Assembly (NCBI GenBank): GCA_017654855.1
Contig: CM030336.1
Coordinates: forward strand, 2,108,001-2,172,000
DNA: 64,000 nucleotides
Reading direction: 5' to 3'
Origin: Podospora anserina
Taxonomy: Eukaryota
Shown in pieces: positions 29,528 through 62,129 of this stretch. How positions within the stretch are numbered: position 1 is the first letter of the stretch; each line of letters begins with the position of its first letter. The position numbers and the translations under genes are program-made. Under the pieces are notes generated by a model. That model was not told where the DNA came from, made no database searches, and worked only from the letters and a program-made list of their open reading frames with translations.

Positions 29528-31416
29528 ATGGCTTCCACAAATTCGAATGCACCTCGTCATGAGGGGAGTGTGGCAGAGCAGACGGCCGGCCATGTTAACG
29601 GTGACTATGTGGTCAATGGCGTGCCACAGCTGCCCACCGCATTCCGCAACGGCAACGGCGGCCTTGGTGCTGGGGGTTTGCCCAGGAACATGTCGCTGAA
29701 CAGCTTCGCTCTGACAGAGTACAGCGCAAAGCCAACACCCCCCGCTGAAGACAAGAAAGATGAAGTGAAAAAGGTCGTGCCAGACGAGTATCTGCTACCG
29801 AATGGTAACCCAGATGTGAGTCACCCCGAGTCCATTCTTAGTTTTTGATCGAGAAGCTCATTATCCTACGTGTACAGTATCTTCGCCTTATCATCACCTC
29901 CTACCCGCGGGTGAGAGAGGTGTGCAAAGAAACTCCTTTGGTGCACGCTGTTGGCCTGAGCAACCGACTGGAGCGCAAGGTCCTGTTGAAGCGCGAGGAT
30001 GAGCAACCGGTATTCAGTTTCAAACTCAGAGGAGCGTACAACAAGATGGCTCATCTCGACGCTACCGAGTCCTGGAAGGGTGTCGTTTGTTGCAGCGCTG
30101 GCAATCATGCTCAGGGCGTTGCTTACTCGGCCCGCAGGTTGAAAATCCCAGCCACTATTGTGATGCCCAAGGGCACACCAAGCATCAAGCATCTCAATGT
30201 ATCGAGAATGGGCGGACACGTTGTTCTTCACGGCGCCGACTTTGACGAGGCCAAGGAGGAATGTGCTCGGCGGGAAAAGCAGGATGGCCTGATAAACATT
30301 CCCCCGTTCGACGACCCTTATGTTATTGCCGGCCAAGGAACTATCGGTATGGAGATTCTCTCACAAACAAACCTGCAGAAGCTTGATGCCATCTTCTGCT
30401 GCGTGGGTGGAGGCGGCCTGATCGCCGGCGTTGGTGTGTACGTCAAGCGTATTGCACCGCATGTCAAGATCATTGGCGTGGAAACGTACGACGCGGATGC
30501 GATGACTCAGTCTCTCGACAAGGGGGAGCGTGTGCTTCTCAAGGATGTTGGGTTGTTCGCCGATGGCGCCGCGGTCAAGATTACGGGCGAGGAAACGTTC
30601 CGTATTTGTCAGGAGGTTGTGGACGAAATGGTTCGGGTAACCACAGACGAGGCCTGTGCCGCTATCAAGGACATGTTTGAGGATACCAGGTCTATCATTG
30701 AACCAGCTGGTGCCCTGGCCATTGCCGGTCTGAAGAAGTGGGTGGCCGCCAATCCAACCCCGGATCCTACACGGTCTGTCGTGGCCATCACATCCGGCGC
30801 AAACATGAACTTTGACCGCTTGGGCTTTGTTGCAGCCCGTGCTACGTACGGCGAGGGAAGAGAGGCTTTACTTGCAGCCCGCATCCCAGAAAGCCCGGGA
30901 GCCTTCGCTGAACTCATCAACGCCGTCATGCCTCACTCTGTCACCGAGTTTAGCTATCGTTACGCCAGCCCAACTGAAGCAAATGTGCTCCTGGGTATCT
31001 CATTAACCGCCGTTGGTAGTGAACGCGCACAGCAACTGCAGTCGGTTATCAGCCGCATCAAGGAGTCCGGCACCATGGATATCACCGATCTGTCCAACGA
31101 CGAGTTAGCAAAGAGTCACATTCGATACATGGTTGGTGGCCGTTCTAGTGTGCCTAACGAGCGTCTGTACACATTCCGATTCCCAGAACGGCCCGGTGCT
31201 CTTGAGCGCTTCCTACAGACCTTGCGTGTCAAATACAACATCAGTCTGTTCCAGTACAGAAACCACGGTGGTGATATTGGGCAGGTTTTGACAGGCATCG
31301 TTTGCCCGAACGAGGAGATTGGCGAACTAGAAACATTCCTCAAGAAGATCGGCTATCCGTGGGAGGACTGCACAGATGCACCGGTGTTCAAGACATTCTT
31401 ACGGTCGGAGTCATAG
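29528..31416 (+). CDS. ILV1: Biosynthetic threonine dehydratase (threonine deaminase)
   Basis: PLP lysine motif VFSFKLRGAYN, SAGNHAQG, GGGGLIAG, SGANMNFDRL, regulatory FPERPGAL..NISLFQYRNHG; intron 29816-29877. Confidence 0.96.
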
Positions 31417-32338
31417 ACCGTTAGAGATAGAGGATAATGGTTAAGACTTCTGCAGTTTAGATGGAGAATTATACTGTAAATCAGTTGCCGAGAGCTTTTC
31501 GCAGGCCTCTGTATTGTTGATTTCGATTAGTATTTTCTTAGTTAATCAATAGTTCCATGCCTAATAAGATACAGAAAAAACCAGGGAAAAGAAAACCAAA
31601 AGAGAAAATATAAGAAAGAAGTTTAAAGTATATAAAGAAAGCGTAAGTTAAATATAAAATATAAAAATGATAATAAAGTTATTTACAACAATTCAAATTT
31701 AAAAAAAAAAAAGCTATAAGAAACTATAGGCATATAAAATATACTTAAATAGTAACTTTATCTACTATATTAAAATAAAAAACTAAACTTTAAACTAAGA
31801 GATTCATAAAGCCTTAAATATGGATAGTATTTTAGTATCTTTAAAAAATATTAAAAAAACTATTTTTACTTTGTTAAAAACTAATAGAATATTACAAGTT
31901 ACTTAATTAATATTAATAAATTTCAAATAACAAATAATTAATTTCTTTCTCTTAAAAAAGCATCTGAGCGTAACGTAAAAAGCCAGAACAGAAGCCCTGC
32001 CTACTATTAAAACCAAAAAATTAATACTAATAATAAAACACTAAAACAGCCCTGAATAGTAGTATCATAAACCTTACAAAATCTATATGAAAAAACCTTT
32101 CTTTTATAATAGGTTATTAAATTAATATTAAGAATTTATAATAGTAATATAATATTATTTCTTATTAAATATTGGAAAACACTAATTATTTATTATAAAG
32201 TTAAATTCCAGCGTTTGAAATACGATATTCTATTTAAAACTATATATAATCAAAACTATATTTATTTCCGTTATACCTAAAAAATTTAGTAACATATGTA
32301 AATTTAAAATTATATTATCTTAGCTTTTAAATTACCAG

Positions 32339-32755
32339 TGCGACGAACTCCTATCAAGAACCTCTGAAAGCGATACTAGTCGAAGGCTGCTTCTGAACAA
32401 TCCTAGTTTGGTACAGCTAAACAGTGTACAACAATGGCTCATCTCAATCACAATAATCAGGATACCAACCAATGTGACTTGTAATTGCATACTGCGGAAC
32501 TGTCTATCTAACACTGGCCAGTTCCTCCATATATATACAAGTGGATCACCTGGATCACCATGCCCAGCGTGATCTTGGATCACTTCCTCCAGCGTAGGCT
32601 CACTATGGATCACTCCTGTCACCTTAGGATCACTTGGATCACCTTGCCCCTAGCGCTCCGAAGCGCTCCGCTTCCTATTAGCTCCTTTAACGATTGGCTG
32701 GGTACATCCCGTGCCCCGCATACTGTGCAACTTGCCTGTTAGCTTAACGGTAACA
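32339..32755 (-). mobile_element. Solo LTR of gypsy family A (variant with GGATCAC repeats)
   Basis: TG...CA ends; shares the conserved half (tgYgacgaac...gaacctctgaaag...ccagttcctcc) with the other family A LTRs; flanks ACCAG/ACCGG (TSD with one mismatch). Confidence 0.85.
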
Positions 32756-33869: not shown

Positions 33870-34653
33870 ATTATATTTTCTTTTATACTACTTGAAGAAT
33901 TTATTATACTGGTCAACTTTTTATATAATAAAAAAATTGGGTTTTTCATATGGTACTTTTTGAAGAGTTGGTAGCGCTATTATTTAAAGCTTTATTACGC
34001 TATTATTTAAAGCTATTTTATCTCTTTGGGTCTAGCATTAATTTTACCATTTTATTAGAAATTAAAGTTATTATTACTGTTGTTAACATTATATTATGGC
34101 ACTTTGTTTATATATATTATATTATAGTACTATACTTTCTTTATAAAATTATTTACTATGAAGGTAATAGAAAAATAAACATTAATAAATCATTGAAACT
34201 AATAAAATATAATTTGATTTCTATAATATAATAAAAGTAAATGTAAATTTTGTATAATGAAATATTTAATAAATCAAAAATTAGCTCTATGATAAATAAT
34301 AAATTCTTTTTATTATTTACTTATAGACTTAATGGTATATTTAAGCTCTATAGATTATAGAGCTTGTGAGATAATATTATGATTTAAAATTGATAATATT
34401 TATGAGATTTTAGAGACTATAGTAACTAAAGTAAAGTTTAAATATCTATAGTAAACCGAGGTTCCGGAAAGCTAGGTGTATGGTTAATATTGTGTAATAA
34501 TGAAATAGTAGTACTTTATTTAATAGCTAATAATCTATAATAGTAAAATAATAACATTATATACTCTATAAACTTTATTTAATCTAATATATTGAATTAA
34601 TATTTGATTTTAAAGGAAAAATAACTTTAGAGATTGATTAAAAACCTAGAGGG

Positions 34654-35023
34654 TGTCACGGACCTGACATAAGTGGGGAGCGTGGGGCGCGACCTGTTTA
34701 ACCACTGGAATAGAAAAGTGGGGAAGTTAGATTATCACTAGCGCCAAGGGTGATAATCACGATTATTACTAGCCTTCAGTAAACGATAAGTAATAATCGA
34801 CACTATTACTCATAATAATAGTAATAAACAGGTCTATATATACGGAGGAACTGGCTAGTATAGATAAATAGTTCCGTAGTATGCAATTACAACTTATATT
34901 CACGGTATTTTATAATTATATTAAGACATTTTATTATACGCTGTTTAGCCGTACCGAACTAATTATCAAAAATAACCTTTAACTAATATCCCTTTCAAAG
35001 GTTCTATACAGGGGTTCGTTACA
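34654..35023 (+). repeat. 5' LTR of the full-length family A element
   Basis: Direct repeat of 41403-41772, differing mainly by C>T/G>A. Confidence 0.93.
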
Positions 35024-35274
35024 CGTTATATATTTACTTTAACTCTATTACGGATAAGTTAAAAGTATTAAGTTAATACTATAGCCGGAAATATTAATAA
35101 TATCTAGGTAGGGGTATTTACTTAACTTACTATCGACTAGCTTCTTACTTATATTTAAAAGCTTAAAAGTAAATTATATTTTTCCCACGATACCCTTACG
35201 TAAAAAAACGCTATACTCTACCAGGAGATCGGTACTTTACGTAGAAAAAGAGAGCGTACTAAGCTCGAGGTACC

Positions 35275-35616
35275 TGTGACGAACCTCTGTACAGAACCTC
35301 TGAAAGGGATACTGGTTGAAGGTAACTTCTGACAATTGGTTCGGTGCAGCTAAATAGTGCACAACAAGATGTCTCAATCACAACAGCTAAGATACCACGA
35401 TTGTGACTTGTATTGCATACTGCGGAACTGTCTATTTACACCAGCCAGTTCCTCCGTATACATAGACCAGTGGACCGTGGACCGTGAGCCCCGCCGCGGT
35501 CCCCGGTCCCCATCTTATTGGTCCGTTCCGTCCACTCGGACCGTGAGCCCCGCTCGATCGCTCGGTCCAGTCCTGATTGGTCCCTCGTGGCCCCACTGTC
35601 TTCCAGAACCGTGACA
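35275..35616 (-). mobile_element. Solo LTR of family A (GC-rich ggaccg/cggtcc variant) inserted antisense into gag
   Basis: TGTGAC...GTGACA ends, perfect TSD GTACC (35270-35274 / 35617-35621), little RIP. Confidence 0.93.
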
Positions 35617-36601
35617 GTACCCGATCGCTATAGAGGTATAAAAGGAGAGCTATGAGGATTCCTGATCTAACTTAAAGCTTACTTTCGGTACTACCCTTCT
35701 CGTTTCCCGGACGAGGAATCTAAGGTTATATATATTACGTCTAGGCTTAAAGATATAGTATTTATATAGTTCCAGACGATTTTAGGAAATTACTTTAATA
35801 ATGTGTATAATAAGAGGGGGGATATTATTAAGAAGTGTTTTAAATTATATAAAGGCTTTAAAAAGAAAATTAAAGAGGTATTTAAAAAATATAATAAGGG
35901 TAGGCGTACCTAAGAGTAACTAATTAACCTTAAGTAAACTCGATTTATTACCAATTATATTATAGTATTTAAAATATATATATTTTATAATATAATTAAA
36001 AATAAAGGATTAATATAATTATTTTATAACGGGCTTAAAAAAAAGTTAAAAATAAATTATATTAAATAGAATAACCGGAGATTATCGACAAGTATGTTAT
36101 AATAGTAATCCGTATTAACGATCGATAATATTAGCGCCGCAAGAAGCGTAAGGGCACACACGTATAAGGGCCCTACTACCCTAACGATAAAAGGAAAAGA
36201 CGGCTGTACGGGACTTACGTCTCGGAGACCACTTACGTAAAATCTATAGAGGTCGATACTATTTAATAATAAAGGCCGTAAAGCTAGGGTAAAAATAACC
36301 TTAAGTATTTTAATTACGGTAAAGTAAAGTATTTTAAAAAGGATTGTAGGGTACCTAAACGACTCGGATAGAAAAGGAAAATCGTAATAATTATTATATT
36401 AAAAGGACTAAGAATTATAGAGGTTGTAGCTATCGGATATTAGTAAAGTAAAGCGAAGAACCATTATTAAATATATATACGAGAGAATATTAAGTACGTA
36501 AAAGACGGAAAATAAGAGGAAGCTAGGCGGGTATAGTTAAAAAACTTTATATTATTAAATAATTCGGAGAAAGAAAACGCTTTTAAACGATATAATTACT
36601 T

Positions 36602-36637
36602 AAGAAACGACTTACGGCCCTTCGCGGGGGCCGGTAA
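36602..36637 (+). promoter_or_regulatory. Putative -1 ribosomal frameshift signal at the gag/pol junction
   Basis: AAGAAAC (probably RIP-altered GGGAAAC) followed by hairpin TTACGGCCC-TTCGC-GGGGGCCGGTAA; the same motif is in the minus copies at about 47605-47637 and 52141-52172. Confidence 0.6.
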
Positions 36638-39600
36638 TTTTTAATAAATTATAAATAGTATTTTCGGAAGTATTGGTATAAAATAAAAGTATAAGATAAC
36701 GATCCGATATTTATTAGCGAAATTACTATTATATAAAGAAAAGGTAAAAAAAAAATTTATTTTTAGATTATAATATATTAGAAAAATATTTAAATAATAG
36801 TATTAATAAATAGAAATATAGAAACGAACCTAATTTCGTTATAATTCGTATATTAAGTTAAAATAGTATAAAAGAAAAAAAATTTCGTTATATAAAATTT
36901 ATTTCCGACGTAAAAGGTTTATAAAGAAATATTATTTTTAAATATTATAGTCGAAAGAAAGATAATTTTAATTATCTTCGATATTATAAATATAGGACTC
37001 TCGAAGGATATAATCCTAGGGTAACTATAGTATAAAGACTATAATCTAGATATCGATTAGAGGGATAGTAACTACCTACGACCAAGAGAGCTTTAAAAGT
37101 ATTTAACCAACGATAGGAGATTAGGCGTATATATAGAGCAGAGTATAGGATAAGTACCTTCTATAGTACTACCGTAAGGAACCCAAAAAGTAATAGTATA
37201 CTCTATCGATATAGGTAGTAAAATTAAAGAAATAAAGTTAACGACGTTAATAAAAATATTAAAGGTTAATAAATATATTTACTATAATAATATAAAAAAA
37301 GTAAGAAAAAAGTAATATCGGTAGAATATCGAGGATACTTAACCTTTACGGCTAAGTATTTAGAGGGACTTCTAAAGCGAAGACCGTAGAATTACGAAAT
37401 TAAATTAAAAAAATTTAAATTATAATTATTTAAGGTCTACTATACTAACGATAAATAAAGTAAAAAACTATAGAAATATTTAAAAAAGATTTTAAAGAAA
37501 GGATATATTAAGAAGTTTATATCGCTAGTAAAATACTTTATATTCTTCGTACCGAAGAAAGATAGTAACTTATAATTATATATAAGTTACCGTTAATTAA
37601 ATAACGAAATAATAAAAAATAATTACCCGCTACCGTTAATATTTAAATTATAAAATTATTTAATTAAAGTATTATACTTTATACGCTTGAATATACCTAT
37701 CTAGTACGCCTATATATAGATTAAAGAAAGAAAGAAATAAAAAATAATGTTTTGTATATTTTATAATTATTTCGAGTATTTTATAATATTATTTAAGTTA
37801 ACTAATATACTCGCAATATTTTAATCTTTTATTAGTTATATAATTAAGAAATACCTTAATAAAATAATAATATATTATCTTAATAATATCTTTATCTACT
37901 TACGTACTCTAAAGAAATATAAGCGATACGTGCGAGAGATATTTAACGCGCTATACGGAGCCAGACTCTTAATAAATAAAAAGAAAAGCGAGTTTTACGT
38001 ATAAAAGATAGTATATTTAGGATATTTAATATTATTAAGTAAGGTTCGTATAGGACTTAAGAAAATTACGGTAATTAAGGACTAACCTACGCCGTATTTA
38101 TAAATATATATTAAAGAATTTTTAAGGTTTATAAATTTCTATCGGATATTTATTTATAAGTATATAGGAATTACGTAACTATTTAACTATTTAATTAAAA
38201 AAGACGCGGAATTCCGGTAAGGGTAAAAAGAGGAGTAAACCTTTTAGAAGCTAAAAGAAGTTATTTTAAAGGACCCGGTACTTAAATTATTAAACCCTAA
38301 TCGACTATTTAAGATTAAAGTAAATATATTAAATTATATAATCGGTAAATAATTAGGATAGTAAAATAACGACGAAAAGCTATACCTTATAACCTTCTTT
38401 TCGAAAAACTAAAAGAGGTACGTTAAAACTACCTAATTTATAATAAAGAACTACTCGTTATTATCGAAATATTTAAAGAATAAAAATTATATTTTTATAA
38501 TATTAATTATAAAATATAAGTTTATATAAACTATAAAAATCTATAATATTTTATTATTATAAAAGTCCTTAACGTATAATAAATATAATAATTAAAGTTT
38601 CTTTCGCAATTTAATTTCTAAATTAATTATAAAAAGGGTTCGGAAAACGCTAAAGCAAATGTATTTAACCGGCGAGCTAATTACTATAAAAATATATTAA
38701 AGGAATTACTATTACTATTTAAGAAAACGCTAAAAGGTATTTTGAAATATTTACTTTAGCCGTAAATAAAGTATTATATAGTATATTATAAGTAAATTAC
38801 TTTTAATAAATACTAAAGAAAGTTAAATAATAATATTATAGAGTAATATTAATAAAAAAAATTAAAGTTATAAAGTTTTTAAAAAAATAATTAAGGAAGA
38901 TTATAGTATAAAAATCGAACGTATATAAAGTTAGGCGATAGGATAATATTAATAATAAAAATTTATAAATAGAAACTCGGAAAATATATAGGTATTATAA
39001 AGACTATAGAAAAAATTAAATAGTACTTTAATAGGCCGAGGATTAAGGACGACGTTAAGGAAGCTATTTAATTATATTATATATATAAGAAAATAAAGGT
39101 TACGAGGTATAAGCCTTACGGATTTCTAAAATTACTATTAATAATAAAACGACTATAGAATTTAATTATAATAAACTTTATTATTAAATTATAAAAATTT
39201 AAAAATATAATAACTAACGTTAAATATAATAATATATTAACGGTAGTCGATAAGCTTATTAAATAAATATACTTTTACTTTATAAAAAAACTTAATCGGT
39301 AAAGTAATTAACGGATATAATACTACGGTATATTATATTAATATATATATAACTAAAGAAATTTATTATAGACGGCGATATTAAATTTATATCGAAGTTT
39401 TAAGGAGCGTTAATAATAAGGCTCGGGATAATAAATAAAGTATTTTCGGCGTACTACCTTTAAATAAACGGTTAAACGGAATAGCTTAATTAAATCGTAG
39501 AATAATATTTACGGAATTATATTAATTTCGAGTAAAATAATTAAATTAAATTATTACTAATAGGATAATTAATATATAATATATTATTAATAAAAACGAC

Positions 39601-40273
39601 TAAAGTTATACCGTTCTTTATAAATTGTAAATATAAAACAGACTTATAGTAGGGACTTAACGTTAAAGTACCTAAGGTTAAGGTTAAAGTAAATAAATTA
39701 TATATATTTTATAGTAAACTTAAGTAAAAACTAAAGTTTATAAGAGAAAGGATACGGGAATATTATAATATTAAAAGGCTCGAGGGACCTCGCTTTAAAG
39801 AGGGAAATATAATATTTTTTTCTATATATAATATACGTACTAAAAGACCTAATAAGAAGCTAAATTATAGGAGAGTAAGCTTATTTAAACTTAAAAGGAA
39901 GATCTTAAAAATAATATTCGAATTAAAGCTACCTAATACGATACGTTTAAAGTTATATACTTTTTACATTTTACTTTTAAAAACTATATTACTAATAAAT
40001 AAAACTAATTTTTAAGTAATAATAAAAGATAAAAAAGAAAAATATAATATAAAAAAATATTAGATTTACGGTTTAATAAAGGTTAATTAAAGTATTTAAT
40101 TAATTAATTAAAATATCCGGCTATAAATAATTTATAGGAATTAAAGGTAAACCTTAATTACTTAAATAAATAAAAAGTATTTTACTAATAATATTTAAAC
40201 CGATTAAAACTTAAGTAAATAAAAGATTAATATTTAGGTTTATAAATAGTATTTATAAATTTAAATACCGAAG

Positions 40274-40343
40274 CACCTTAATAGGAATCGAACCTACGTA
40301 TTTAATATAATAATCGATGTACTACATATTATACTACGAGGTT
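40274..40343 (-). pseudogene. tRNA-like cassette, copy 1 (RIP-mutated), inside the retrotransposon
   Basis: Minus strand: aacctcg-tagtataatatgtagtac-...-gtaggttcgattcctat-taaggtg; A-box-like sequence and intact B box GGTTCGATTCC; isotype not readable. Confidence 0.6.
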
Positions 40344-40479
40344 AATAAGTATAACGAAATCTAAGCATAATTAATACTATACGCCTCCACTATTATAAAA
40401 AAGGTCGAAAAAGCATTACTAGCGAGTAAAATAATATTTAAATTTAAAAAAATCTATCGGGTTTTTCTAAATTTAGAAG

Positions 40480-40549
40480 AACCTCGATAGGAATCGAACC
40501 TATACTTTTAATATAGTGGCCGGCGTACTACATACTATACTATAAGGTG
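40480..40549 (-). pseudogene. tRNA-like cassette, copy 2 (RIP-mutated), inside the retrotransposon
   Basis: Minus strand: cacctta-tagtatagtatgtagtac-gccggccactatattaa-aagt-ataggttcgattcctat-cgaggtt; tandem duplicate of copy 1 with about 206-bp spacing. Confidence 0.62.
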
Positions 40550-40649
40550 AAAAGGTATAAGGAAACCCAGTTATAAGTAGTACTATGCGTCCTAACTACT
40601 TTAGGAAGTAAAAAGCGCGCTATCGGTAATACTTTACGGAATTAAAAAA

Positions 40650-41280
40650 GAAAGACCGGCCGTACTAAGATCCAAAGGAAGGTCGGAAGGTTAATCGAAG
40701 TTTAAAGAAGGATCCAGGAAAGAAAAGTTAGAAGGACCCGAGGGAGTAAGATTAGAAGGATAAGCGTTATTAAACGACGGGATAGCCTGCGCGGCCTACC
40801 TAACTTCTTCCTATTCGATACGTTCGGTAACTTCTAACTCGTCGAGAAAGAAGAGGCCGCGGGTAACTATAACGGCTCCTTTATCTATAAGAAATTCGCG
40901 TTAATAACGGTCCTGCGATAAATAAATTAAAGCTTTAAAAACTTTCTATTAAAACTCAACTAAAAAAGTTTTAATAGGTTTTTCTTTTCCTAAAGATAAC
41001 GTTACTCTCGTATAATCTTATTTATTAAAGGAAATTAGTAAAAAAGAAGAGAAAGGTAACGAGAGACTTACGTAATAAAATAGGGATACCGGTACCGTTA
41101 TATAAACGTTTACGACGTACGTAAGCTTTATAACGCTTTACTTTATTTATTATACGGTAGGTTAACCCTTACGAGTTATATTACGAGTAAAATATAACGA
41201 GGAAGCTGTTTTTAATAATATTCTAAGTAAATTTAGTATGGTACTATATAAACGACGATAGAGGTTTTACTATAGATATA
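40650..41280 (-). pseudogene. Antisense accessory gene of the gypsy element: Cys6 Zn-cluster-like N-terminus, intron, coiled coil (boundaries approximate)
   Basis: De-RIP reading MPCSWC.SQGLTCRMM.KVKRCEACVRRGRSCDGTGIP; GTAAGT donor at about 41071; later frame ...QREFL.DKGAVMV.RGL..LDELE..ER.EQEE. Confidence 0.65.
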
Positions 41281-41402
41281 ACGTTAGTTAAACTATTAAA
41301 GGATAAGAAGGAAGACCTACGAAGAAAAGAAGGAAGACGAGAAGAGCGTATACAATCGATAAGACTAGGCTAACGGGACGTTAATCTGGAGGAGGGGCAT
41401 TA

Positions 41403-41772
41403 TGTCACAGACCTAACATAAGTGGGGAGCGCGGGGCGCGACCCGTCCAACCACTAAAACGGAAAAGTAAGGAAGTTAGATTATTATTAACGCTAAGGGT
41501 AATAATTACGATTATCACCAGCCTTCGGTAAACGACGAATAATAATCGACATTATTACTCGTAGTAATAGTGATAAACAGGTCTATATATACGGAGGAAC
41601 TGGCTAGTATAGATAGATAGTTCCGTAGTATGCAATCACAGCTTGTATTCACGGTATCTTGTGTTTACATTGAGACATTTTGTTATGCGCTGTTTAGCCG
41701 CACCGAACTAATTGTCAGAAGTAACCTTCAACCAGTATCCCTTTCAGAGGTTCTGTACAGGGGTTCGTCACA
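41403..41772 (+). repeat. 3' LTR of the full-length family A element
   Basis: TGTCAC...TCGTCACA, preceded by the PPT and followed by TSD GAGGG. Confidence 0.93.
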
Positions 41773-43619
41773 GAGGGCTATAAAATCTTTATTTCAGTGT
41801 TATTTATTACAAAATCTTTTATTTTATAGATTGAATAAATATATTTATTATTAAAAAAGATACTATAAAGGGCTATAGAATTCAGGCTTACATAGTAGTC
41901 GGTATAATATTTTAGAAGTGAAGAAAACTTCGATTATACTCTCCAATAGTAATTAAGTATTAAAGGAATATAAATCATGAAGTTATTATATTAAAATATA
42001 TTAAAGTAATTATTATAACGTAAGTTTATGGAGCCTTGAGTAAATATAGTAAATTTATAGTTCCAAACATATTATAATTAATAAACGTTAAAATAAAGGC
42101 TTTATAGGTCCTTAAACTATTAAGTTAATAAATTTATATAATATAATATTATGACTTAACCTTTCAAATACCTTTTATACTATTTATTATTTATAATGTT
42201 ATCATTAACTTCTTCACTGTTAACCTATCCGTAAATAATATAAATAATACTTTTAACATATTTCTTTCTATATTTTCTTTTCAAATACTATACCCTCCTT
42301 TATTTTTACTATATACCTCTTACATTTATTAATTAAGTTATTAAAATATATTACTTGAATTTTTATTTTCAACAACTTAAATATTAATCAGTTTCTTGAT
42401 TTTTCATAATCAATAATTTTCTTTTTACCACTGTTAATAAATACGTTTAAGAAAACGCCGCTGGAGCGTAATATAAAAGACGGATATAAGAGGCTTGGCT
42501 ACTATAGAAACACTAAAATAAACGCTAATAATAACGTGCTAAAATGACTTTAAATAATAAAATATAGAAAATAAACTATTTCATTATCATTTTAAAAACT
42601 ACTGAATATAATGAACTACTACCTTACTAGTAAAGGGATTTAATATTAATATAATATCACTCCTTACTAAAATTTGAAAAAGACTTACCACTTATCATTA
42701 AAAAAAAACTCCGGTATATTAAATATTATGTTATATTGAAAACTATATTTATTTTCATTATGTTATAAAAACTACATAACCTATATAATCTAAAAACTAT
42801 ACTATTTCAGCTTTTGAAGTGCTGAGTTTTACCAATTAGTAAATAAATATTAATAGATCAATATATCTTCATCTTTTACCTTTAATAAAATTTAAATTAA
42901 TTATTTAGTATCTTCTAACCTTAGGCTAGTAATGAAAAAGTTACTATAGCTTAAAGAAATTTATAACAGATTTAAAGTTATGAAAACGCTTATTAATATT
43001 ATTATATAGCCTCAAAATCTTGAATAAATAATATAATCAAATATTGAATTTATTCAGATACGTGGTATAGCACTGGTATAGCTAGTGGCATTGCACTAGC
43101 ACACATAATTTATAGCTTTCCCACTACTTGTTAGCATTTTAAGCATTTATTATTATTACAACCGTTACTACTTAGTATAGTATAGTAGCTTTATCTATTA
43201 ATAATAACTAGATTTCATACTGTGACGAACTCCAATCCAGAACCTCTGAAAGGGATACTAGTCGAAAGCGCTTCTAAATAATCCAGGTTCAGTATAGATA
43301 AATAGTAGATAATAATGGCTTACTTTAATCAAAATAGTTAAGATACTAACGAATATGATTTATATTATATGTTACGGAACTATTTAATACTTATTAATTA
43401 CAAGTACCCGGCGCCCCGTACACTATTTAACCTACCATTAATTTAATTATAATATTATACCCTTTTTTAATTTAACGGTTTAATAATTAAACTTGTAAAA
43501 TAATAACCGTTCCTCCTTTTTGGTTAATACCTTGATAATAAGTTTCTTCTCTTATACCTCTTTTTTTAAGAAAATCGTGATAATATTTAACCGTATATAA
43601 AAATATTATTATAAAATTG

Positions 43620-44150
43620 AAAAGAATTTCTCTCTTGCCTCGCGAATCTTCTAGTATGGCTTTACTATTATACTTTACTTTACTTATTTTACTTCCCGAA
43701 TCCCTTACATTATAATTCCGGCTCCTTTCGGTATTTAAAATATACACGCTGTAAAGACCTATATAATAGTTTTAACGTAAATTTTACTTATAAACATACC
43801 TTCCGTTTTTCTTTATATTATAGCTAATTACTTTATAATAACCCGAGTAATAAAGGAGTAAAATAAACTAAAGCGTAAAAAGTAAAACCTCAAAAACTAA
43901 CGTGTATAATTAATTACTAAACTCCTCTCGTTAAAATGAATACGTCGTTTCCTCTGTATCAGCAAAAAGCAATTATTCGCGTATAGTATTTAGAAAAAAG
44001 ATACTTAAATAGCATAGTCCGCTACTACCGCCTTATCTAAGCCTTTTAGAATTTCCTCGCGGCCGGCTACCGCCCGAAAGACTACCCCGTAGGATCATCT
44101 CGCTCTAGATCCCTCCTTAAGCCTCGACTAACCCTCCGACTTCCCTCTAA
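43620..44150 (+). pseudogene. Divergent homolog of the antisense accessory gene in the minus-strand gypsy copy (boundaries approximate)
   Basis: De-RIP RCSECTRR...CDG at about 43729-43770 followed by a gtaaat donor-like site, then KLLSLKRIRRFLRISKKQLFARGIQE at about 43920-44000. Confidence 0.5.
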
Positions 44151-47100
44151 ACCCCGGGCTTTTCTTTTTAACCAATCCGGGTACTACCGGTAAAACTCCT
44201 TTAACCTGTTAGGGTAATTAATATACATTACAGAATTTTACGAATCATTATAAGTGAATACTTGAAATTATTAATTAAATACTTTAATTAGCTTTCATTA
44301 ATATATAAATTTGGTATTTTCTTTATATTATAGTTCTCTTTTTGGTTTTTCGCAATTCTTTCAAAAATTAGCCTTACTTATTCATAATACAGATTTTAAA
44401 GGTAAAATATAAATATATATTACCGTAAACGTAGTATATTAAGTAACTTTAACTCGTACGGTATTTGCGATATCATCTTTTTAATCTTCAATTACCTTAC
44501 TCTTTTATAATAGAATTCTTTATTTAGTTTTTCAATACACAAATTATATATAAAAAAGAATAATATATTTCTCCTTTTAAAGTAAAGTCCTTCGGGTCTT
44601 TCAAAGTTATGATACTTACATATTTTTTATATAAGGTCCAATTCTCCTTTAAATTTATTACAAAGTAAATATAATTTGATTACTTTAACTATGATTTTAG
44701 AAACCTTTACTTTGAGTCCTTAACGTAAATTTACCTCTTACTTAGAATTCGCGAAAAAAGATATAATTTATTATTTTAAATGATAATATACTATATAGTT
44801 ACGCTATAAGTAGTAATTTAACCAAATCATTTTACCTGGAATTAGTATAAATTTATGAATATCATTATATGATTTAAGTAAGCCGTTCCGTTTATTCGTC
44901 GGTTTCAAAGAAATAGGTTAATGATATCTTACTCTTTATTTTTGGCCTCTTTACTAATACTCATTAATTGAAATATAAACGTAGTATTGCAATTTTTAAT
45001 AAGCTTTCTCGGTTACATATATAATAATATAATACACCGTGATATTATGTTTACTAATCATTACGCTATTTACGTTTCTTTATACAATAAAAAGTATATC
45101 CATTTACGAGGCTTATAAATGATAAGTAATTTATTATTATATTTAGCGCCGGTTACTATATCCCGACACTTTAATAATTTGATGATAAAGTTTACCATAC
45201 CTAAATTTTATAACCATCTAATTATTTATAATAACTTTAAAGATTCTTAAAACTTATCTTTTATAATGTTAATTTTCTCGTATTTATTGTATAATTAAAT
45301 AACTTCTCTAATATTTTGTAATTTTTGATTAATTATAATACTCGTTAATTTTCTTTATAGTTTAGTAATACTTATATACTTTCCGAAGTTTAGTTCGTAA
45401 ACTTCTTTATTAATACCGTCCTAACACTTAACTTGATATAAACCTGATTTCATATTAATATTATTCCCGACTATCCTTTAAAATACTTACGGCTTTAGAA
45501 TTTTTAAACTTATTATTATTTTGTAGTATTTTTTTCAATTTTCCATTACGATTTCTTAAACAGAATTTATTTATAATACATAATATAATATTTTATTCAT
45601 AATTAAAGTAAATATTTAAACTACCTTCTGGCGTTTTTTTAAAATAGTAATAGTAACTTTATAACTATATTTTTATAATAATCGGCTTACTTGTTAAATA
45701 TATTTACGTTAATACTTTGCGATCCTTTTTTATATTTAATTTAAAAGTTATATTTTAATAGACAGTTTAAATATTTGATTTAGTGAGTATTAAAGACTTT
45801 CATAATCGTAAAGTACTGTAGATTTTAATAGTCCGTATAGACCTGTACTTCGTAATTAGTATTATTAAGATATAACATTTATTCTTTAAATACTTCGATA
45901 ATAATAAATAGTTTTTTATGATAAATTAAGTAATTTTAACGTATTTGGTTTTATTTCTTTAAAAGAAAGTTACAAAATACAATTTCCCATTCTCGTCCCG
46001 CTAATTTAATTATCTTCCGATTATATAGTTTAATATATCCGCAACGACTTTGAATAGTCAAGTAAAGTTTAATAATCTTAATGCCGGATCCTTTAACACA
46101 GTTTCTTTTAAATTCCAGAATATTTACTTTTTTTATTTTTTGCTTTTGCCGCATTTCTTTTTTACATAATTAAACCAACGCGTAATATTTACGTACCTCC
46201 GGATAAATGTCCAATAAAAAGTTTTCCGAAGAAAAGTTTAATGTATATTTATGATTATAACGTAGATTAGTCTTCAATTACTATAATTTTCTTAAAGGTG
46301 TTAGAAACTGTATTCAATAATATTAAACATTTTAAATATACTAATTTCTATATATGAAGTTCGGATTTTATTTATTTATTAAAAGTGCGGCTTTCTATTG
46401 CGCGTTAAGTGTTTTTTGTACATACTTTTTACATTCTTTTAATGTATATAAAGAAATAGAAATATTATTAGAATGATGTATTATTGTTTAATTAAATAAT
46501 GTTACGAGATACTCGATTAAGTGTAAGGTATACAAAGCGCTATTCATTACTTATTTCTTTCCTTGATTCATATATAAGCGTACCTAACTAGTAAATATAA
46601 ATTATTACGTTTTGACTAATTAATTCCGTAGCCTAAACATTTGATGATACTAAATAATTGTTTTGTTACCGTTTAATTGTTTAACTAACGGTAATATATA
46701 TATATATTTGTAAGCCTCAATCTTCTTTAATCGAAAGAAAAAAAGGTAGTTGATTAGTAATATTGATTCTAAAGAAAAATTGTAAATTTTCGTTTAAGTA
46801 CTTTTATAAATCTATAGTTTATTTATCCTTAGTATAATGAACCCTAAATAACCGTGATTTAGCTTCTTCTTTTAACCTAATTCTATAGTTTTACGGTTCT
46901 TATTTTAAAAACCCCTTTAAATATTTAACCGTTAAATACCTCCGATATTATACCGGTAGTGCTTTGTTCTTAGTTATATTATTAGAGTAAATAAATCCAT
47001 TTACTTCCGATATGATTACTAATATTATTAACATCCTTCTCAATTTCACTATTTATATCGGTAAAATGCATTATTATTTTTTATGTTTTTTACGTTGATA

Positions 47101-48144: not shown

Positions 48145-49988
48145 ACGTATATTATAAGCGAGTGACCCATATAAGCGAGTGGCCCACTTCCCACCACACC
48201 GTAACAAACTATCCTCAATTATACTGCAACAACACTAGGAAGCAACTACAATTATATTAGAACGGCTGAATCAGATGATTCCCCAACCTCCTGGCAAGTG
48301 CGCGCGTTATGGCCAGGCTTGCCGCACACACCACAGCACCGAACCCTCGCACGATCTCCCCCTGCATTACTACTATCCGGCTGCGTTTCTTGCACTTCCT
48401 CCCTATCCACGGCCTTCTGATCCAGTAGATCCTGTGCCTCTTGTATAGTAAGTGACCCTATAAGCCTCACATGTGTTTTTTGGCTCTCCGGCACTTACTT
48501 AGTGCCTCATTGGCCTTACGGAGCGAAGAGACCTCTGCACGAAGGAGAGCCACCTGGTGCATTATAGCCGTTATACCCTTAGTAAGCTGGTCTACCGCAG
48601 CCAGCATTGAAGTCGGGGAGCTATTTTGATGGTTAGTAATGCGAGTCTTGATGAGCGTTAACTGTAAGTTAGCTTCTCGGAGTTTTATAGTATCTAGAAT
48701 ACTTAAGGTTATAGAGTGCGGGGCCGTAAAGTCGGGGGTATTAGCGTACGAAGTTTTATATTTAGTTTAGAAAATACCCTTTCTAGATCGTACGGTATAA
48801 AGCTAGTACCCGTAAAACTACCCTATATATTCTTCTCCGTTATAGAAACGAAGAAGGCTTTACGGAAGGTATAGAGGAACTCGACTTTACTTATATAATT
48901 AATATACGTACGTATTAAGTCCTCGATCTGGTAACCGTACGCCTATTTTAGCGGCCCAAAGTAGCTGATATTAAGTGGTTGGAGGAAGTAAGAGGAATGT
49001 GGAGGTATGTAGAGCGTAATAATATTATTCTACTAGTAGTGGCGCTCGAATCCAGTCGAGTAATGGCTTTCGTAGCCATCGAAAATCAATAATCGGTATT
49101 TACCTTTTATATAGGACGCTATATAATAATCGAAATATTTAATTTAATTTAGGCCTATTAAATTAATAGTTTAATTATTATCGGTAATTATAATATACTA
49201 GTCGGCCGGGAAGTTATATTCGGTATATTAGTTAGTAAGGTAGTATTAAGCGATTAAAATAATAAAAAGAGGAATAGCTTAGTTAAAGGTATTAACTCCC
49301 TAAATTACTATTACCTATTCGCGGTTACTAGGCTAGGCTAGTTTCGCTTTACTAAGGCCGTCCGAAATCGTAATTACTATACCCGCGAAAATAATGCCCA
49401 TTATAAACCTAATCTCGTCGAAGTTAGATATATTATTATCTATAATACCGTACTTAACTTTAGTATTCCGTATAAGCGTAAACCACCCGGCAATTACCTT
49501 TAGATCTTCGCACTTAGCCCTCTAGTAGTCGTATCTACGTATAAAACGCGTACGGAGCTATAGCTAGCGTTTAATAAATTTATGGGCCTAGCGTTTACTA
49601 ATAGGAGGCGCGTCGCGTACGCGTAGTAGTTGGTTGGCCATATCTTCTATACTACTTAATCTAGGTGGGAATGCGCGTGTAGAGAGCTCAAGGACGTACT
49701 AAACTATCGTCTACTCCTCCAGATCCGTTAGATTACGTATATTAGCTGGAATATCGCGCCGTACAGACTTACTAGCGCGTCGGCGATAGAGGGTAGTATA
49801 AAGCACAGAATAGAGCCTCGCTGCAGCTTTAAGGCTTAACTTAGGGTCATTTTTAAAGGCTTCAAGTGCAAGAACAACTTTTGCCTCAACTAGAATCGAA
49901 GACATCTTAGTATAGTGGGAGGAAATTAATGTTGCAGGTAGAGACCTATATTGCGTGCGAAATCGATTCACTCGCTTATCAAATACGT
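48145..49988 (-). mobile_element. Fot1/Pot-type (pogo-like, Tc1/mariner superfamily) DNA transposon, 1844 bp, inactivated
   Basis: TIRs ACGTAT(A/T)T(T/G)ATAAGCGAGTGA at both ends, TA TSD. Transposase relic from ATG 49905 (HTH: LSLKAAARLYSV..TTL.RR) through DDE motifs (NFDE.RF, LIFDGYESH, PPHSSYFLQPLNIS) to a C-terminal CGVCGKPGHNARTC knuckle ending at 48252. Confidence 0.93.
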
Positions 49989-52222
49989 TAATATACTATA
50001 TAATACTTTATTTACAAGTAAAATAAATATTTTAAAAATACTTCTAATATTTCCTTAAATAATAATGGTAACTTTCTAGGTATATCTTTATAGTAGTCGG
50101 TTCGCCGGCTATATACGTCTGCCCTAACGCTCTTCAAACCCTTTTATAGTTAATTTAAAAAATTAAGTTCCGAAAGAAACTTTAATTACCGCGTTTATCG
50201 TACGTTAAGGACCTTCGTAATAATAAAATGTCGTAGATTCTTACAGTCCATATAGACTTATATGTTATAATTAATAATATGAACATATAACCTTTACCTT
50301 TTAAATACTTTAATATCAACGCATAACTCGTTATCGTAAATTAAATAACTTTAACGCACCTCCTTTAGCTTTTTCGAAAAGAAAGCTATTAAGTATAACT
50401 TTCTATCGTCGTGTCGCTAACTCAATTATTTATCGATTATACAATTTAATATATCAACTTTAACGTCGAATAATTATTTAGGGTTTAGTAATTTAAAAAC
50501 CGTGTCCTTTAAAATAACTTCTTTTAATTCTTCAACGGCCTACTTTTTTTCTTACCTTTACCGGAACTTTCCGTTTTGTTTAATTAAATAATTACATAGC
50601 CGCGTAATCTTTATATATTTCCGGATAATAATCTAATAGAAATTTCAAAATTTCAAAATTTTCTTAATATATATTCATAATTACGGTATAGGTTAATCCT
50701 TAATTACTATGATTTTCCTAAGTTTTATCCGAAGTTTATTTCATAATATTAAATATTCTAAACATACTATTTTCTACCTTTAAACCCCGTTTTTTTAAAA
50801 AAATTAAAAGTCCGGCTTTATATAGTACGTCGACTATCTCTCGTACACATCGCTTATACTTCTCTAACATACATAAGTAAATAAAAATATTATTGAAATA
50901 ATATATTATTATTTTATTAAAATATTTCCGGATTATATTAATTAACGAAAGATTAAAACGTCGCGGACGTATTAGTTAACCTACATAGTATTATAAAATA
51001 TTCAAAAGAATTATGAGGTATATAAAAGGTTATTTTTAATTTATCCCTTTTTTTAATCCGTATAAAAATATACTTAATAGGTATATTTAAGCCTATGAAA
51101 TATTATGCTTCAATTCATTAAATCCGTACAATAAATATTAATAGTAGTAAATAATTATCTTTTACCGTTTCGTTATTCAATTAGTAATAATCTATATATA
51201 GTTATAAATTACCGTCTTTTCTTAATACAAAAAATATAAGGTATTTTACCAATAATATTATCTCTTTAATATATCCTTTCTTTAGATTTTCGTTTAAACA
51301 CTTGTGTAATTCTTTACTTTATTTATCGTTAGTATTATAAACCTTAAATAACCGTAGCTTAACTCCTTCTCTTAGCTTAATTTTATAGTGTTACGGGCCC
51401 CGCTTTAAAAATCCCTTTAAATATTTAACCGTAAAGGCTAGGTATCCTCGATATTTTGCCGGTACTATCTTTTTCTTTACGTTTTTATAGTATATATATT
51501 TATTAATTTCTGATATTTTTATTAACGTCGTTAAATTTTTTTCTTCAATCTTACCGCCTATATCGATAAAAGATACTATTATTTTTTAAGCTCCTTACGG
51601 TAATACTGTAAAAGGTATTTGCCCTATACTTTACTCTATATATAGTTCTAATATGCTACTGTTAGTTAGATACTTTTAAAGTTCTTTTAGTCGTAAATAA
51701 TGACTATCCCTTTAATCGATATTTAAACTATATTTTTTATATTATAATTACTTGAAGACTGTATTTTTCGAGGGTCCTATGTTTATAATATTAAATAGAG
51801 TTAAAATATTTTTTTTGGACTATAATATCTAAAATTAGTAATTTTGATACACTTTTTACGTCGGAAACAGTTTTTATATTATATTTTATTCCTCTTTTTT
51901 CTCTATAATATTCTAACTTACTATATAAAATATAGCGAAATTAAGTTCGTTTCCGTACTCCTATTTCTTAATATTACCGCTTAAACATTTTTTTAATGCG
52001 CTACAACCTAAAGGTATCTATTTTTCTTACCCTTTTTTTATAGTAGCGACCTCGCTAATAAATATCGAGTCGTTATCCTATACCTTTACTTTACGCCGAT
52101 ACTTTCGATAATATTTTTTATAGTCTGTTAAAGGTTATGAGCCCCCGCGAAGGGCTGTAAGTCGTTTTTTAAATGGTTATGTCGTTAAAAGTATCCTCCT
52201 ATTCCGGGTTATTTAATAACGC

Positions 52223-59638: not shown

Positions 59639-61685
59639 AACGCGAATTCTTTTAACTATTTCCGCCGAGCTTCCTCCTACATTCCGTCTCTAACCTTCCT
59701 AATATTTTATTGTACCTATATGTACTAGCGGTTTTATTATTTAATTATTTCTTTAAACTCTTTTATTTAATAATATCGTTTAACTTTCGTAAATATAGCG
59801 TGTAGTCTAAGCTTAAGTACTACGTAAGTACAACTTTCTTTCACGGAACTATACTATCTTTTATACTTTATTCTTTTATTTACTCGACGTAATATCCCGT
59901 ATATTCAAGTAGAAACTATATTACTTAAAAGTTACTTTTTGGTTTCATTAGGTCCTGGATTTTCTATAAGAAGTAATCGTCTATTTCTTTCTGGAATTTT
60001 TCTTACTTAATTATTATTTTCCTAATTAGCTAAAGCATACTTTCTTTACCTAATTTACGCACCGGCTAATAACCGTATAGTAACTTACCCTAATAATATA
60101 CCGTATATCCGTAAATCATATACTCGAACTAAAGTACTTTTCGATATTCTAAATATTTAAAAGAATTATACTGTATTTCCTTCATAGGATATATACTATA
60201 TCACTAAAAATATTAAACCTGACTACTTTACGATCCTAATATTAATAACACTTTTATTTTCTTAATAATTCTTTTAACTTTTATATATAAATTTCTAAAG
60301 CTACGACACTTATTATATATAGATTATCCTATGTTATTTATTTCATTTCTTTAATTTTATTTATTAGGTAAGTCCTTCCTATTATATAAGGTTATCGTCT
60401 TTAATAACCCCTATAGTAATTTCTTTAATAATTTATACTAATTAATCCTATAATTTCTATACTCAAAGATTTCTTTCCTTATACTTTACCTTTAGTCTTT
60501 TTGATATTTCCCGTAGTTTTTAAAACTTTATTTTTTTATTCAATATACTAATTAGAATTTTCTTTAACACTTGAAGCTTTGCTTTTTATTACCTAATAGT
60601 TATAACCTTTATAACATTCCGTCCTTTTAATATAATAATTACTATAATCTCTTTTTTTAACCAAGTTAGTTAAATACTTTATTATCTTTTTTAATATACT
60701 TTACTTTACTATAATGAAAATATTTAAAAATACTTTCACTTTGATTCCGGCCTTACGGCCTTTCCTACTATATTGTGTCGAGTTATATCGGTTCTACATA
60801 AGTAATACTGGAGTAATTAATGTTAAAATATTACTAAATACATTTATTATTAGAGCGGTTATTACCGTAGTATTTCTTATTATTACTTTTCATTTCTGCA
60901 CGACGCTAGAACTACCAATCGTTAATCCGTATAGCTATAGTAATATACTTATTGATAGTATTAAACGTCAACTCCTTATATAAATTATCTTTTACTTTCT
61001 CCTCAAAGCCGTTATAAAAAACTATATTAATCCCTTATCGTTAATAATAATACGTAGGCTATTGATCTTAAATAAAGCTATATAGTCTACGGTTAAGCGT
61101 GTTTAGCGTAGGTTTACGAACCTTTCTTACGTACGCCTTACCTTATCGTACTCCCTAAATACTTTTTTAAGTTTAGCCTCGAAAATACAATAGCTTTTAA
61201 AACATTAAACTGTATTTTTTAATCCTTTTCCTCCTTGTTATAATAATGGTTAAAGATAAGTTCGAACTATAGCTAAGCTTTATCCTTGAATTTAATTACT
61301 ACGAAAATTACTTTTAACTTTTCGTTAATGTATTAACGTAATTAATAAGAAAAATAAGCTTGAAATTAAATTAAAAAGCCTTTAAAGTCTTTCTTTGCTC
61401 TTGTATAATACTCCGGTACCGGGAACTTAAGTATCGATTTAAGTATAATTATTATAGCGATAATCCAAATCTGGATTTATTAAGCTTCGCTTTTAAGTTC
61501 TTTAATACGTTTAATAAACTATTCCGCGAACGTAATATTAAATTTAATCGCTATAGTACTTTTAAAGGTCCGTTATTACTTAGGCCAGGTAATATATTTC
61601 CTATTTAAACGTTTTTATGTTCGGCTATAGTAGTAAAAAAATACTTTTAAATTATCCGTAATAAAGTGAAAGTAAGTATATAACG

Positions 61686-62091
61686 TATAACGAACCTCTA
61701 TTTAAACCCTCTAAAAACAGATACTAATTAAGAGCACTTCTAAATAATTTTAGTTCGGTATAGCTAAATAGTATATAATAATAGCTTATTTTAATTATCA
61801 TAGTTTATATATTAACGATTATAACTTATAATTATATATTATGAAACTATTTAATTATATTGGTTAGTTCCTCCGTATATATACACCTAGTGATCTCCTG
61901 TATTATTAACCCTTAACAATAATCCTATCCTGGATCATTAACTCTTGGCAATAATCCCGCGCTGGATTACTGACTTTTGGCAATGATCTCATAAGTAAGG
62001 CTATTCCCGTCCTGATTGGTTTTACTAGCGATTGGCTGTGCGTGTCATACCCCGCACACGGTCCGCTCTGCCCGTTGGCTTAACTGTGACA
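61686..62091 (-). repeat. 5' LTR of the minus-strand family A copy (variant with tggcaatRatc/ctggat repeats)
   Basis: RIP-altered conserved half (tataacgaacctc...) and little-mutated variable half ending in TGTGACA. Confidence 0.85.
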
Positions 62092-62129
62092 GTTAGTAAC
62101 TTCATTAATATAATTAAAATAAATTATTT

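Follow-up and report, generated by a model that had tools for sequence, protein, structure and literature searches.

Two antisense tRNA-like units lie behind pol in a RIP-mutated chromovirus of Podospora anserina

How do two tRNA-like sequences come to lie, in tandem and antisense, inside an autonomous retrotransposon, and would they have done anything there? The question is raised by a 64-kb stretch of Podospora anserina DNA (the window) that contains a long terminal repeat (LTR) retrotransposon, here called copy A, with two such units on the minus strand just after pol: t1 (40273–40343) and t2 (40479–40549). Both aligned with the Rfam tRNA model RF00005 over its full length (model positions 1–71 of 71), t1 with 26.6 bits and t2 with 25.4 bits, and were the sole tRNA matches at E ≤ 10 in the whole window on both strands, as a preliminary description of two minus-strand tRNA-like units would lead one to expect. 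Both scores are under the RF00005 gathering score of 29 bits, a shortfall for which repeat-induced point mutation (RIP) can account. The perfect B box attributed to each unit is present, with GGTTCGANTCC at 40284–40294 in t1 and at 40490–40500 in t2 (minus strand); exact B boxes of the form GGTTCGATTCC occur twice in the window, where chance predicts 0.13, and a count of two came up in 1 of 100 shuffles. The A-box-like sequence TAGTATAGTATG, noted beforehand too, stands at the right distance from the B box in the RF00005 alignment, but it is a partial match that departs from the consensus at C11 and G19 in both units.

In the native sequence, ARAGORN found no tRNA at default settings. A relaxed setting (-ps80) detects the native copies and was not used, its noise amounting to 374 matches in 663,552 bases. 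We derived a de-RIP consensus of t1 and t2 by choosing C over T and G over A, which left three transversion columns. Most other genomic copies have A at 40274 (15 contigs, 878 of 946 depth, run X1) and T at 40549 (8 contigs, 508 of 576 depth, run X1), giving A1:U72 in both units. With these two letters corrected, all 7 acceptor pairs form in the consensus, as do 18 of the 21 pairs of the cloverleaf, among them five T-stem and four D-stem pairs with one G:U in each stem. The preliminary description had allowed that a consensus might fail as a tRNA; the corrected one is called by ARAGORN at default settings, and the uncorrected one only at 95% of the ARAGORN threshold. Its statement that complementary halves of the acceptor stem survive in different copies also proved right. 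As a control, de-RIP treatment of 5,924 bases of other copy A segments yielded no ARAGORN match at the default, 95% or 90% thresholds. The RF00005 matches, the B boxes, the ARAGORN-called consensus and the clean controls together make a solid case that t1 and t2 are tRNA-derived.

A chance resemblance in AT-rich, RIP-mutated DNA would fit the fact that both matches fall under the gathering score, as well as the noise of ARAGORN at the relaxed threshold that detects the native copies. But about half of the window is gene-rich, with GC about 0.52, while the other half (about 33 kb) consists of AT-rich repeat with GC about 0.25, and t1 and t2 are its sole two tRNA matches despite all this similar DNA. 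Given also the two exact B boxes, the 7-bp acceptor stem of the consensus and the empty de-RIP controls, we consider coincidence exceedingly unlikely.

Judged by their sequence, t1 and t2 are not credible or working tRNAs, because the anticodon arm is not credible, ARAGORN makes no native call and the native minimum-energy folds are not cloverleaves (z = −1.38 and −0.44). We found no 5-bp anticodon stem with a 7-nt loop and U33: the partner of CCGGC reads ATTAA in both units, and either the anticodon loop would be 6 nt or the variable loop 3 nt. The earlier idea of a CCGGC/ATTAA anticodon stem eroded by RIP does not hold up, as ATTAA in both copies would need five identical RIP changes in each, and the loop would be 6 nt long. 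The ARAGORN fold of the consensus puts the anticodon at position 27 and has no U33; we did not use the accompanying label, tRNA-Arg(ccg), because this fold is abnormal. There is no CCA at either unit, and about 40–60 nt ahead of the 5′ end belong to the repeat in which the unit lies. Runs of T follow downstream on the minus strand, among them a T7 about 27 nt past t2. Palindromes of 37–38 nt adjoin the 3′ ends of the units, at 40231–40267 for t1 and 40454–40490 for t2; the latter pairs the 3′ acceptor strand and trailer of t2 with sequence just downstream.

The carrier extends over 7.1 kb on the plus strand, from a 5′ LTR at 34654–35023 to a 3′ LTR at 41403–41772, both with TG…CA ends, and is framed by the target-site duplication (TSD) GAGGG at 34649–34653 and 41773–41777. 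The units do lie, as stated beforehand, inside an LTR- and TSD-bounded element, and neither of its own LTRs gave a tRNA match in the RF00005 scan. Its internal region (35024–41402, plus strand) holds a RIP-broken gag-pol followed by a 3′ non-coding region, in which a purine run, GGAGGAGGGG (41388–41397, plus strand), lies just ahead of the 3′ LTR and putatively serves as the polypurine tract (PPT). With stops read as X, the plus-strand frames of the internal region matched Pfam RT_RNaseH_2 and SH3_Tf2-1, the latter (a Tf2-type integrase SH3 domain) at 39806–39986. Pfam did not detect a chromodomain in RIPed copy A itself. We nevertheless class copy A as a Ty3/gypsy chromovirus because intact relatives, recovered via the reverse transcriptase region, have reverse transcriptase, RNase H, integrase and a chromodomain (PF00078, PF17919, PF00665, PF00385). 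Copy A is RIP-mutated, as follows from its dinucleotide indices (TpA/ApT 1.43 compared with 0.62 in genes; (CpA+TpG)/(ApC+GpT) 0.25 compared with 1.32 in genes) and from its LTR pair, which is 86% identical and differs by 49 transitions and 1 transversion.

The family is probably crapaud, matched here by its published description and not by a reference sequence: LTRs of about 370 bp with a diverged 5′ half, RIPed full copies and an un-RIPed solo LTR all fit the published account (PMC10787394). Crapaud is described there as the most abundant retrotransposon of P. anserina, with LTRs of about 400 bp whose 5′ half is variable, heavily RIPed full copies, unmutated solo LTRs and some putatively active copies, the full copies numbering 150 (PMC10787394). 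LTR copies in the window agree only over their 3′ ~200 bp, the 5′ halves having diverged. Sites sharing this part lie at 32338–32537, 34828–35026, 35272–35471, 41577–41773, 43220–43386, 61683–61906 and 62092–62312, and the LTR of a second, related copy (copy B, below) aligns with that of copy A mainly at the 3′ end. A complete inverted solo LTR (TGTGAC…GTGACA) with its own TSD, GTACC, sits at 35275–35614 within the 5′ untranslated region of copy A; its GC content is 0.535 against 0.279 in the surrounding element, that is, it is essentially un-RIPed, which fits the published escape of solo crapaud LTRs from RIP. A primer-binding-site (PBS)-like ACCTCGA beside this inverted LTR, at 35270, was rejected as the flank of the solo-LTR insertion.

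Where the block begins and ends can be read from copy B, which is inverted (47710–44190) and homologous to copy A at the DNA level through pol up to 40185 in A and 44190 in B. A transition-tolerant alignment matched A 40000–40209 with B 44376–44166 and A 40624–40729 with B 44189–44093; past about 40730 the two copies no longer align. Copy A thus has 438 extra nt (40210–40647), 59 of which repeat a flanking sequence. Copy B provides the empty site (44093–44376, minus strand), consisting of the pol tail, one copy of that flanking sequence and what follows downstream, with no tRNA-like block. The reported absence of the block from a related copy is therefore correct, copy B being contiguous across the site.

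The flanking sequence, which we call S (40151–40209, plus strand), is the last stretch colinear with copy B and comprises the end of pol and what comes just after. It begins some 165 nt past the SH3 match, at the very end of pol, and since it covers the pol end, the first copy leaves pol whole. A second copy, S″ (40589–40647, plus strand), runs into the sequence shared with copy B, and the two form a 59-nt gapless direct duplication whose score none of 200 shuffles reached. Between them lie, all on the plus strand, a unique spacer x (40210–40259) that contains most of the first palindrome, a 144-nt direct repeat R1 (40260–40403) with t1, a 62-nt spacer (40404–40465), only marginally S-like, and the second 144-nt repeat R2 (40466–40609) with t2, the end of which S″ overlaps. 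Both repeats were delimited by comparison at an offset of 206 and by repeat finding. The proposed duplication with a period of about 206 bp was recovered at exactly that spacing, 40262–40397 being 73% identical to 40468–40603; by manual count, R1 and R2 differ by 12 transversions over 144 positions and otherwise by transitions alone. Comparing x with the stretch preceding R2 gave nothing significant, as the score was equalled in 18 of 200 shuffles. R1 and R2 both end in 21 nt that resemble the start of S, and a candidate middle copy of S at 40383–40456 outscored most shuffles (3 and 5 of 500 reached its scores) but does not stand out from other AT-rich tiles. The layout may be a plain tandem duplication of a unit together with S, or a repeat–spacer–repeat joined to S at the shared 21 nt.

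Two details of the preliminary description need amendment here. The block was said to have no TSD of its own; there is indeed no 5-bp TSD, but the 59-nt flanking duplication had been overlooked. It was also placed between pol and an accessory gene: it does stand antisense just after pol, but we found no accessory gene, as six frames of 40100–41420 gave no Pfam match (Pfam being the one protein search made) and copies A and B cannot be aligned past about 40730. When the window was searched, with tolerance for transitions, for sequences related to the repeats, the spacer and x, there were only weak alignments laden with transitions, at 60.7, 50.7 and 25.9 kb; these were rejected, none matching the T loop.

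Two sharp repeats around a spacer also invite a different explanation, namely a nested, Helenus-like (TRIMp3) miniature LTR element, in which the 144-nt repeats would be LTRs with tRNA-like promoters and the 62-nt spacer the internal part. Its insertion, in antisense orientation, would have hit a single crapaud copy, which was later amplified, and copies with a single unit would be solo LTRs. Helenus elements are LTR retrotransposons with a non-functional tRNA-like sequence that has A- and B-box features, in direct repeats, and they occur in fungi (PMC10886601). The total of 144 + 62 + 144 = 350 bp is inside their range of 311–1263 bp, and an element with a 120-bp LTR and an 85-bp internal part is on record (PMC10886601). 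R1–spacer–R2 fits this two-LTR form, the repeats have sharp boundaries, the likeness of the spacer to the flanks is not significant and joints in other copies skip about 200–300 nt, as single-unit forms would. But nothing marks the repeats as LTRs: no TG…CA ends, PBS or PPT can be recognized in either orientation (RIP may hide such short signals), and in place of a 5-bp TSD, 59 nt of host-element sequence are duplicated, with overlap into the end of R2. No stand-alone copy appeared among the contigs discussed next, which are all colinear with the retrotransposon context, although contigs could miss one. Helenus elements themselves are non-autonomous, carry their units in sense orientation in LTRs and have a PBS, a PPT and a 5-bp TSD (PMC10886601), whereas copy A is a 7.1-kb autonomous element with internal, antisense units flanked by a 59-nt duplication. 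The fungal members in that account come only from Basidiomycota, more precisely from Pucciniales and a few Agaricomycetes, and the carrier here is an ascomycete (PMC10886601). On balance we think a nested element quite unlikely.

The block is not confined to copy A; presence in this copy alone, as a secondary SINE (short interspersed nuclear element) insertion, had been named beforehand as an outcome that would speak against a retrotransposon cargo. The copy A locus was found in 20 sequencing runs from 5 studies under one organism label, and we compared contigs, which are short, from three DNA runs at a likeness of at least 80%, drawing only on positions that contigs cover. No RNA run was listed for the locus, and one run presumed to be RNA gave just a single A-rich piece of 34 nt, which has no bearing on expression. 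Each of the three yielded the locus's own contig (494 nt, 0–1 difference) beside contigs from other copies. One of the latter is colinear over 40096–40683 with 90–93 differences and no gaps; a second covers 40051–40161 and 40358–40726 (within 40051–40726) with a diverged stretch of equal length between; and a third covers 40101–40402, 40476–40620 and 40765–41211 in register. Hence the two-unit block recurs, in the same setting within the retrotransposon, in three or more additional copies of the same genomes. Contig depths, summed as a rough measure, came to about 1,000 for x with unit 1, to 300 for the spacer and to 600 for unit 2; a single contig has 60–70, and the pol tail reaches up to 8,400. 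Joints that skip about 200–300 nt in other copies point to single-unit forms. The structure of 40210–40260 varies among copies, in that some joints swap about 250–300 nt for 36–37 other letters, and several other-copy contigs diverge past 40224. The 3′ non-coding region of this crapaud-like family appears to be a rearrangement hot spot.

Beyond the host, we collected 80 related chromovirus loci from metagenomes (663,552 bases). ARAGORN at default settings found no tRNA in any of them. For the Rfam scan, 19 loci with almost no downstream sequence were left out; of the 61 scanned (550,630 bases), 58 have at least 500 bases past pol and 50 at least 1,000, and none gave a match at the gathering score, a cut-off that would miss sub-threshold remnants. 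Exact B boxes occurred twice among the 80 loci, once on the gag side and once inside pol, as chance predicts. Across this sample, then, the tRNA-like block is not a general chromovirus feature.

Our preferred reading, which we hold with moderate confidence, is that a tRNA-derived piece was captured once, duplicated, carried by retrotransposition and then ruined by RIP. The captured piece would have been a pseudo-tRNA with a leader of about 40–60 nt and a short trailer, acquired antisense and directly after pol by one autonomous Ty3/gypsy lineage, likely crapaud. Acquisition in one lineage is suggested because copy B is contiguous, the flank duplication beats all shuffles and the 61 relatives have no match. 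The piece may have entered while the element was being reverse-transcribed, through recombination in which the enzyme would have left its template for a foreign RNA packaged alongside and later returned to the element RNA 59 nt downstream of its exit point; two such template switches would leave exactly a 59-nt flanking duplication of this kind. A local duplication would then have given the 206-bp period, and the units would have ridden as passengers while the lineage amplified, until RIP inactivated every copy. As passengers they would need no function, and at most a TFIIIC-type B box (after transcription factor IIIC) would be left per copy. The source could be a nuclear tRNA gene with its flanks, a tRNA-derived SINE or the LTR of a tRNA-bearing, Helenus-like miniature element; a mitochondrial source is also possible, and was considered because of the low GC content and A1:U72. 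As to nuclear tRNA loci, 361 are on record (PMC2441463).

Capture of this kind has a counterpart in retroviruses, which transduce cellular sequences when recombination accompanies reverse transcription. There, too, the foreign sequence comes after the last gene and ahead of the 3′ LTR, and non-homologous template switches would fit the junctions seen here; the difference is that the present cargo is a small antisense pseudo-gene of the RNA polymerase III (Pol III) type and not a coding sequence, and that the mechanism is one we infer. Fungal tRNA-derived SINEs such as AfuSINE2 resemble the units in their tRNA-related head, which has A and B boxes, and in the degeneracy of its anticodon arm (PMC5063351). 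SINEs begin at the head, however, and have a 3′ tail and TSDs of 4–14 bp (PMC5063351), whereas here a conserved leader stands ahead of the head, the flank is duplicated over 59 nt and the copies seen are all inside the retrotransposon. On the minus strand the head is preceded by those same 40–60 nt of repeat and followed by no A-rich or simple-repeat tail, which does not fit a SINE. Read-through into a primer tRNA, which would place a tRNA copy beside an LTR end, was rejected, as CCA is missing and what follows downstream is, by eye, unlike the reverse complement of an LTR end.

Several points weigh against capture followed by passive carriage. No source sequence was found, a T-arm plus acceptor pattern having no match in metagenome contigs and so giving no isotype, and the template-switch route has the flank duplication as its one piece of evidence. 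Both units are kept in at least four copies. The block-bearing copies seen are all RIP-mutated, and the contigs say nothing about the block in un-mutated, possibly active copies. The two sharp 144-nt repeats with their 62-nt spacer resemble a miniature LTR element and not a plain tandem duplication. Finally, a manual count without a statistical test gave transversions at 3 of 71 positions of the tRNA-like part (two of them private to copy A) as against 9 of 73 in the rest of the repeat, and this scarcity could hint at constraint before RIP.

The last of these points leads to the alternative of a functional Pol III/TFIIIC module, whose unmutated copies would make short antisense RNAs or act as a chromatin boundary and so aid the spread of the element. 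The low transversion count in the tRNA-like part speaks for it, as do the B box, exact in t1 and t2 alike, the suitably spaced A-box-like TAGTATAGTATG, the T7 behind t2 and the retention of both units in at least four copies, and Pol III promoters are borne by Cassandra, Helenus and Ajax (PMC10886601). Survival of the B box is not evidence of selection, though, because it has no CpA or TpG and RIP spares it regardless. The A box is off consensus in both units, and copy B and 61 of 61 scanned chromovirus loci have no such module. At least 100 contigs cover the pol tail and only about 5–16 the block, so that most family members either have no block or are too diverged to be compared. We think a functional module unlikely. 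A stronger proposal is that a lineage of an autonomous chromovirus took up a dimeric antisense Pol III/TFIIIC module and retained it, becoming, so to speak, an autonomous TRIMp3-like element; when unmutated, the module would act through antisense small RNAs that tune the silencing or copy number of the element, or as a TFIIIC boundary. This seems to us improbable; selection for such a module would explain why both units persist in every block-bearing copy seen.

Cassandra and Ajax likewise have a Pol III gene-derived module propagated by LTR retrotransposition, and they differ in that the module is derived from 5S rRNA and lies in the LTRs of TRIMs, non-autonomous miniature retrotransposons with terminal repeats (PMC10886601; 10.1101/2023.07.14.548913). 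Cassandra is transcribed from its 5S-derived promoter (PMC10886601).

Read in the plus sense, the element RNA would contain two full tRNA complements, which could serve as a distal primer-binding segment or as a sponge for tRNA fragments. Ty3 offers the model, a Ty3/gypsy RNA with tRNA-complementary sequence in its 3′ untranslated part, where the 3′ part of a bipartite PBS anneals to the primer tRNA at its T and D arms (PMC5371799), and the orientation and 3′ location of the block fit. The segments of Ty3 are short, however, lie in U3 and match the primer tRNA of the 5′ PBS (PMC5371799), whereas here two whole tRNA complements stand 850 nt before the LTR with no matching 5′ PBS. The sequence after the 5′ LTR (CGTTATATA…TTAC…; 35024–35060) shows, by eye, no complementarity to the units at their 3′ end; it has no TGG to pair with CCA and does not resemble the complement of a tRNA 3′ end. 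The same sequence is common to two copies, the other being at 61696 on the minus strand. In addition, the G:U pairs make the minus strand the likelier one to be structured, and copy B and the related elements do not have the block. A tRNA-binding role is, in our estimation, very unlikely.

The setting of copy A is a repeat-rich part of P. anserina chromosome 5, judged by the locus tag PODANS_5_5320 of the S mat+ strain, whose product is 100% identical to that of a threonine dehydratase gene at 29914–31413. A block of higher GC content (0.40) at 48400–50000, amid the AT-rich repeat, has two minus-strand open reading frames of 94–99 amino acids, which we take to resemble the N-terminal part of a pogo/Fot1-type transposase.

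How much of this is new? The preliminary description knew of no account of such cargo. An internal antisense block in a chromovirus is, as far as we searched, undescribed: we found nothing that combines 'chromovirus' with 'tRNA-like', and the word tRNA is absent from the main text of the crapaud study (PMC10787394), its supplements being outside this scope. Pol III modules in LTR elements as such, by contrast, are published, and those described, in Cassandra, Helenus and Ajax, have so far been in the LTRs of small non-autonomous elements and in sense orientation (PMC10886601). So far as searched, then, what is new is an autonomous chromovirus of an ascomycete with a tRNA-like block that is internal, antisense and dimeric. 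It indicates that capture into the 3′ non-coding region of an autonomous element is a further way in for such modules, and it may represent a possible intermediate in how tRNA-bearing miniature elements arise. For annotation it counsels caution, as tRNA-like matches in RIP-rich fungal repeats can be retrotransposon cargo. Were the module active, Podospora would be a convenient organism in which to test how a TFIIIC site or antisense Pol III RNAs affect a transposon under genome defence.

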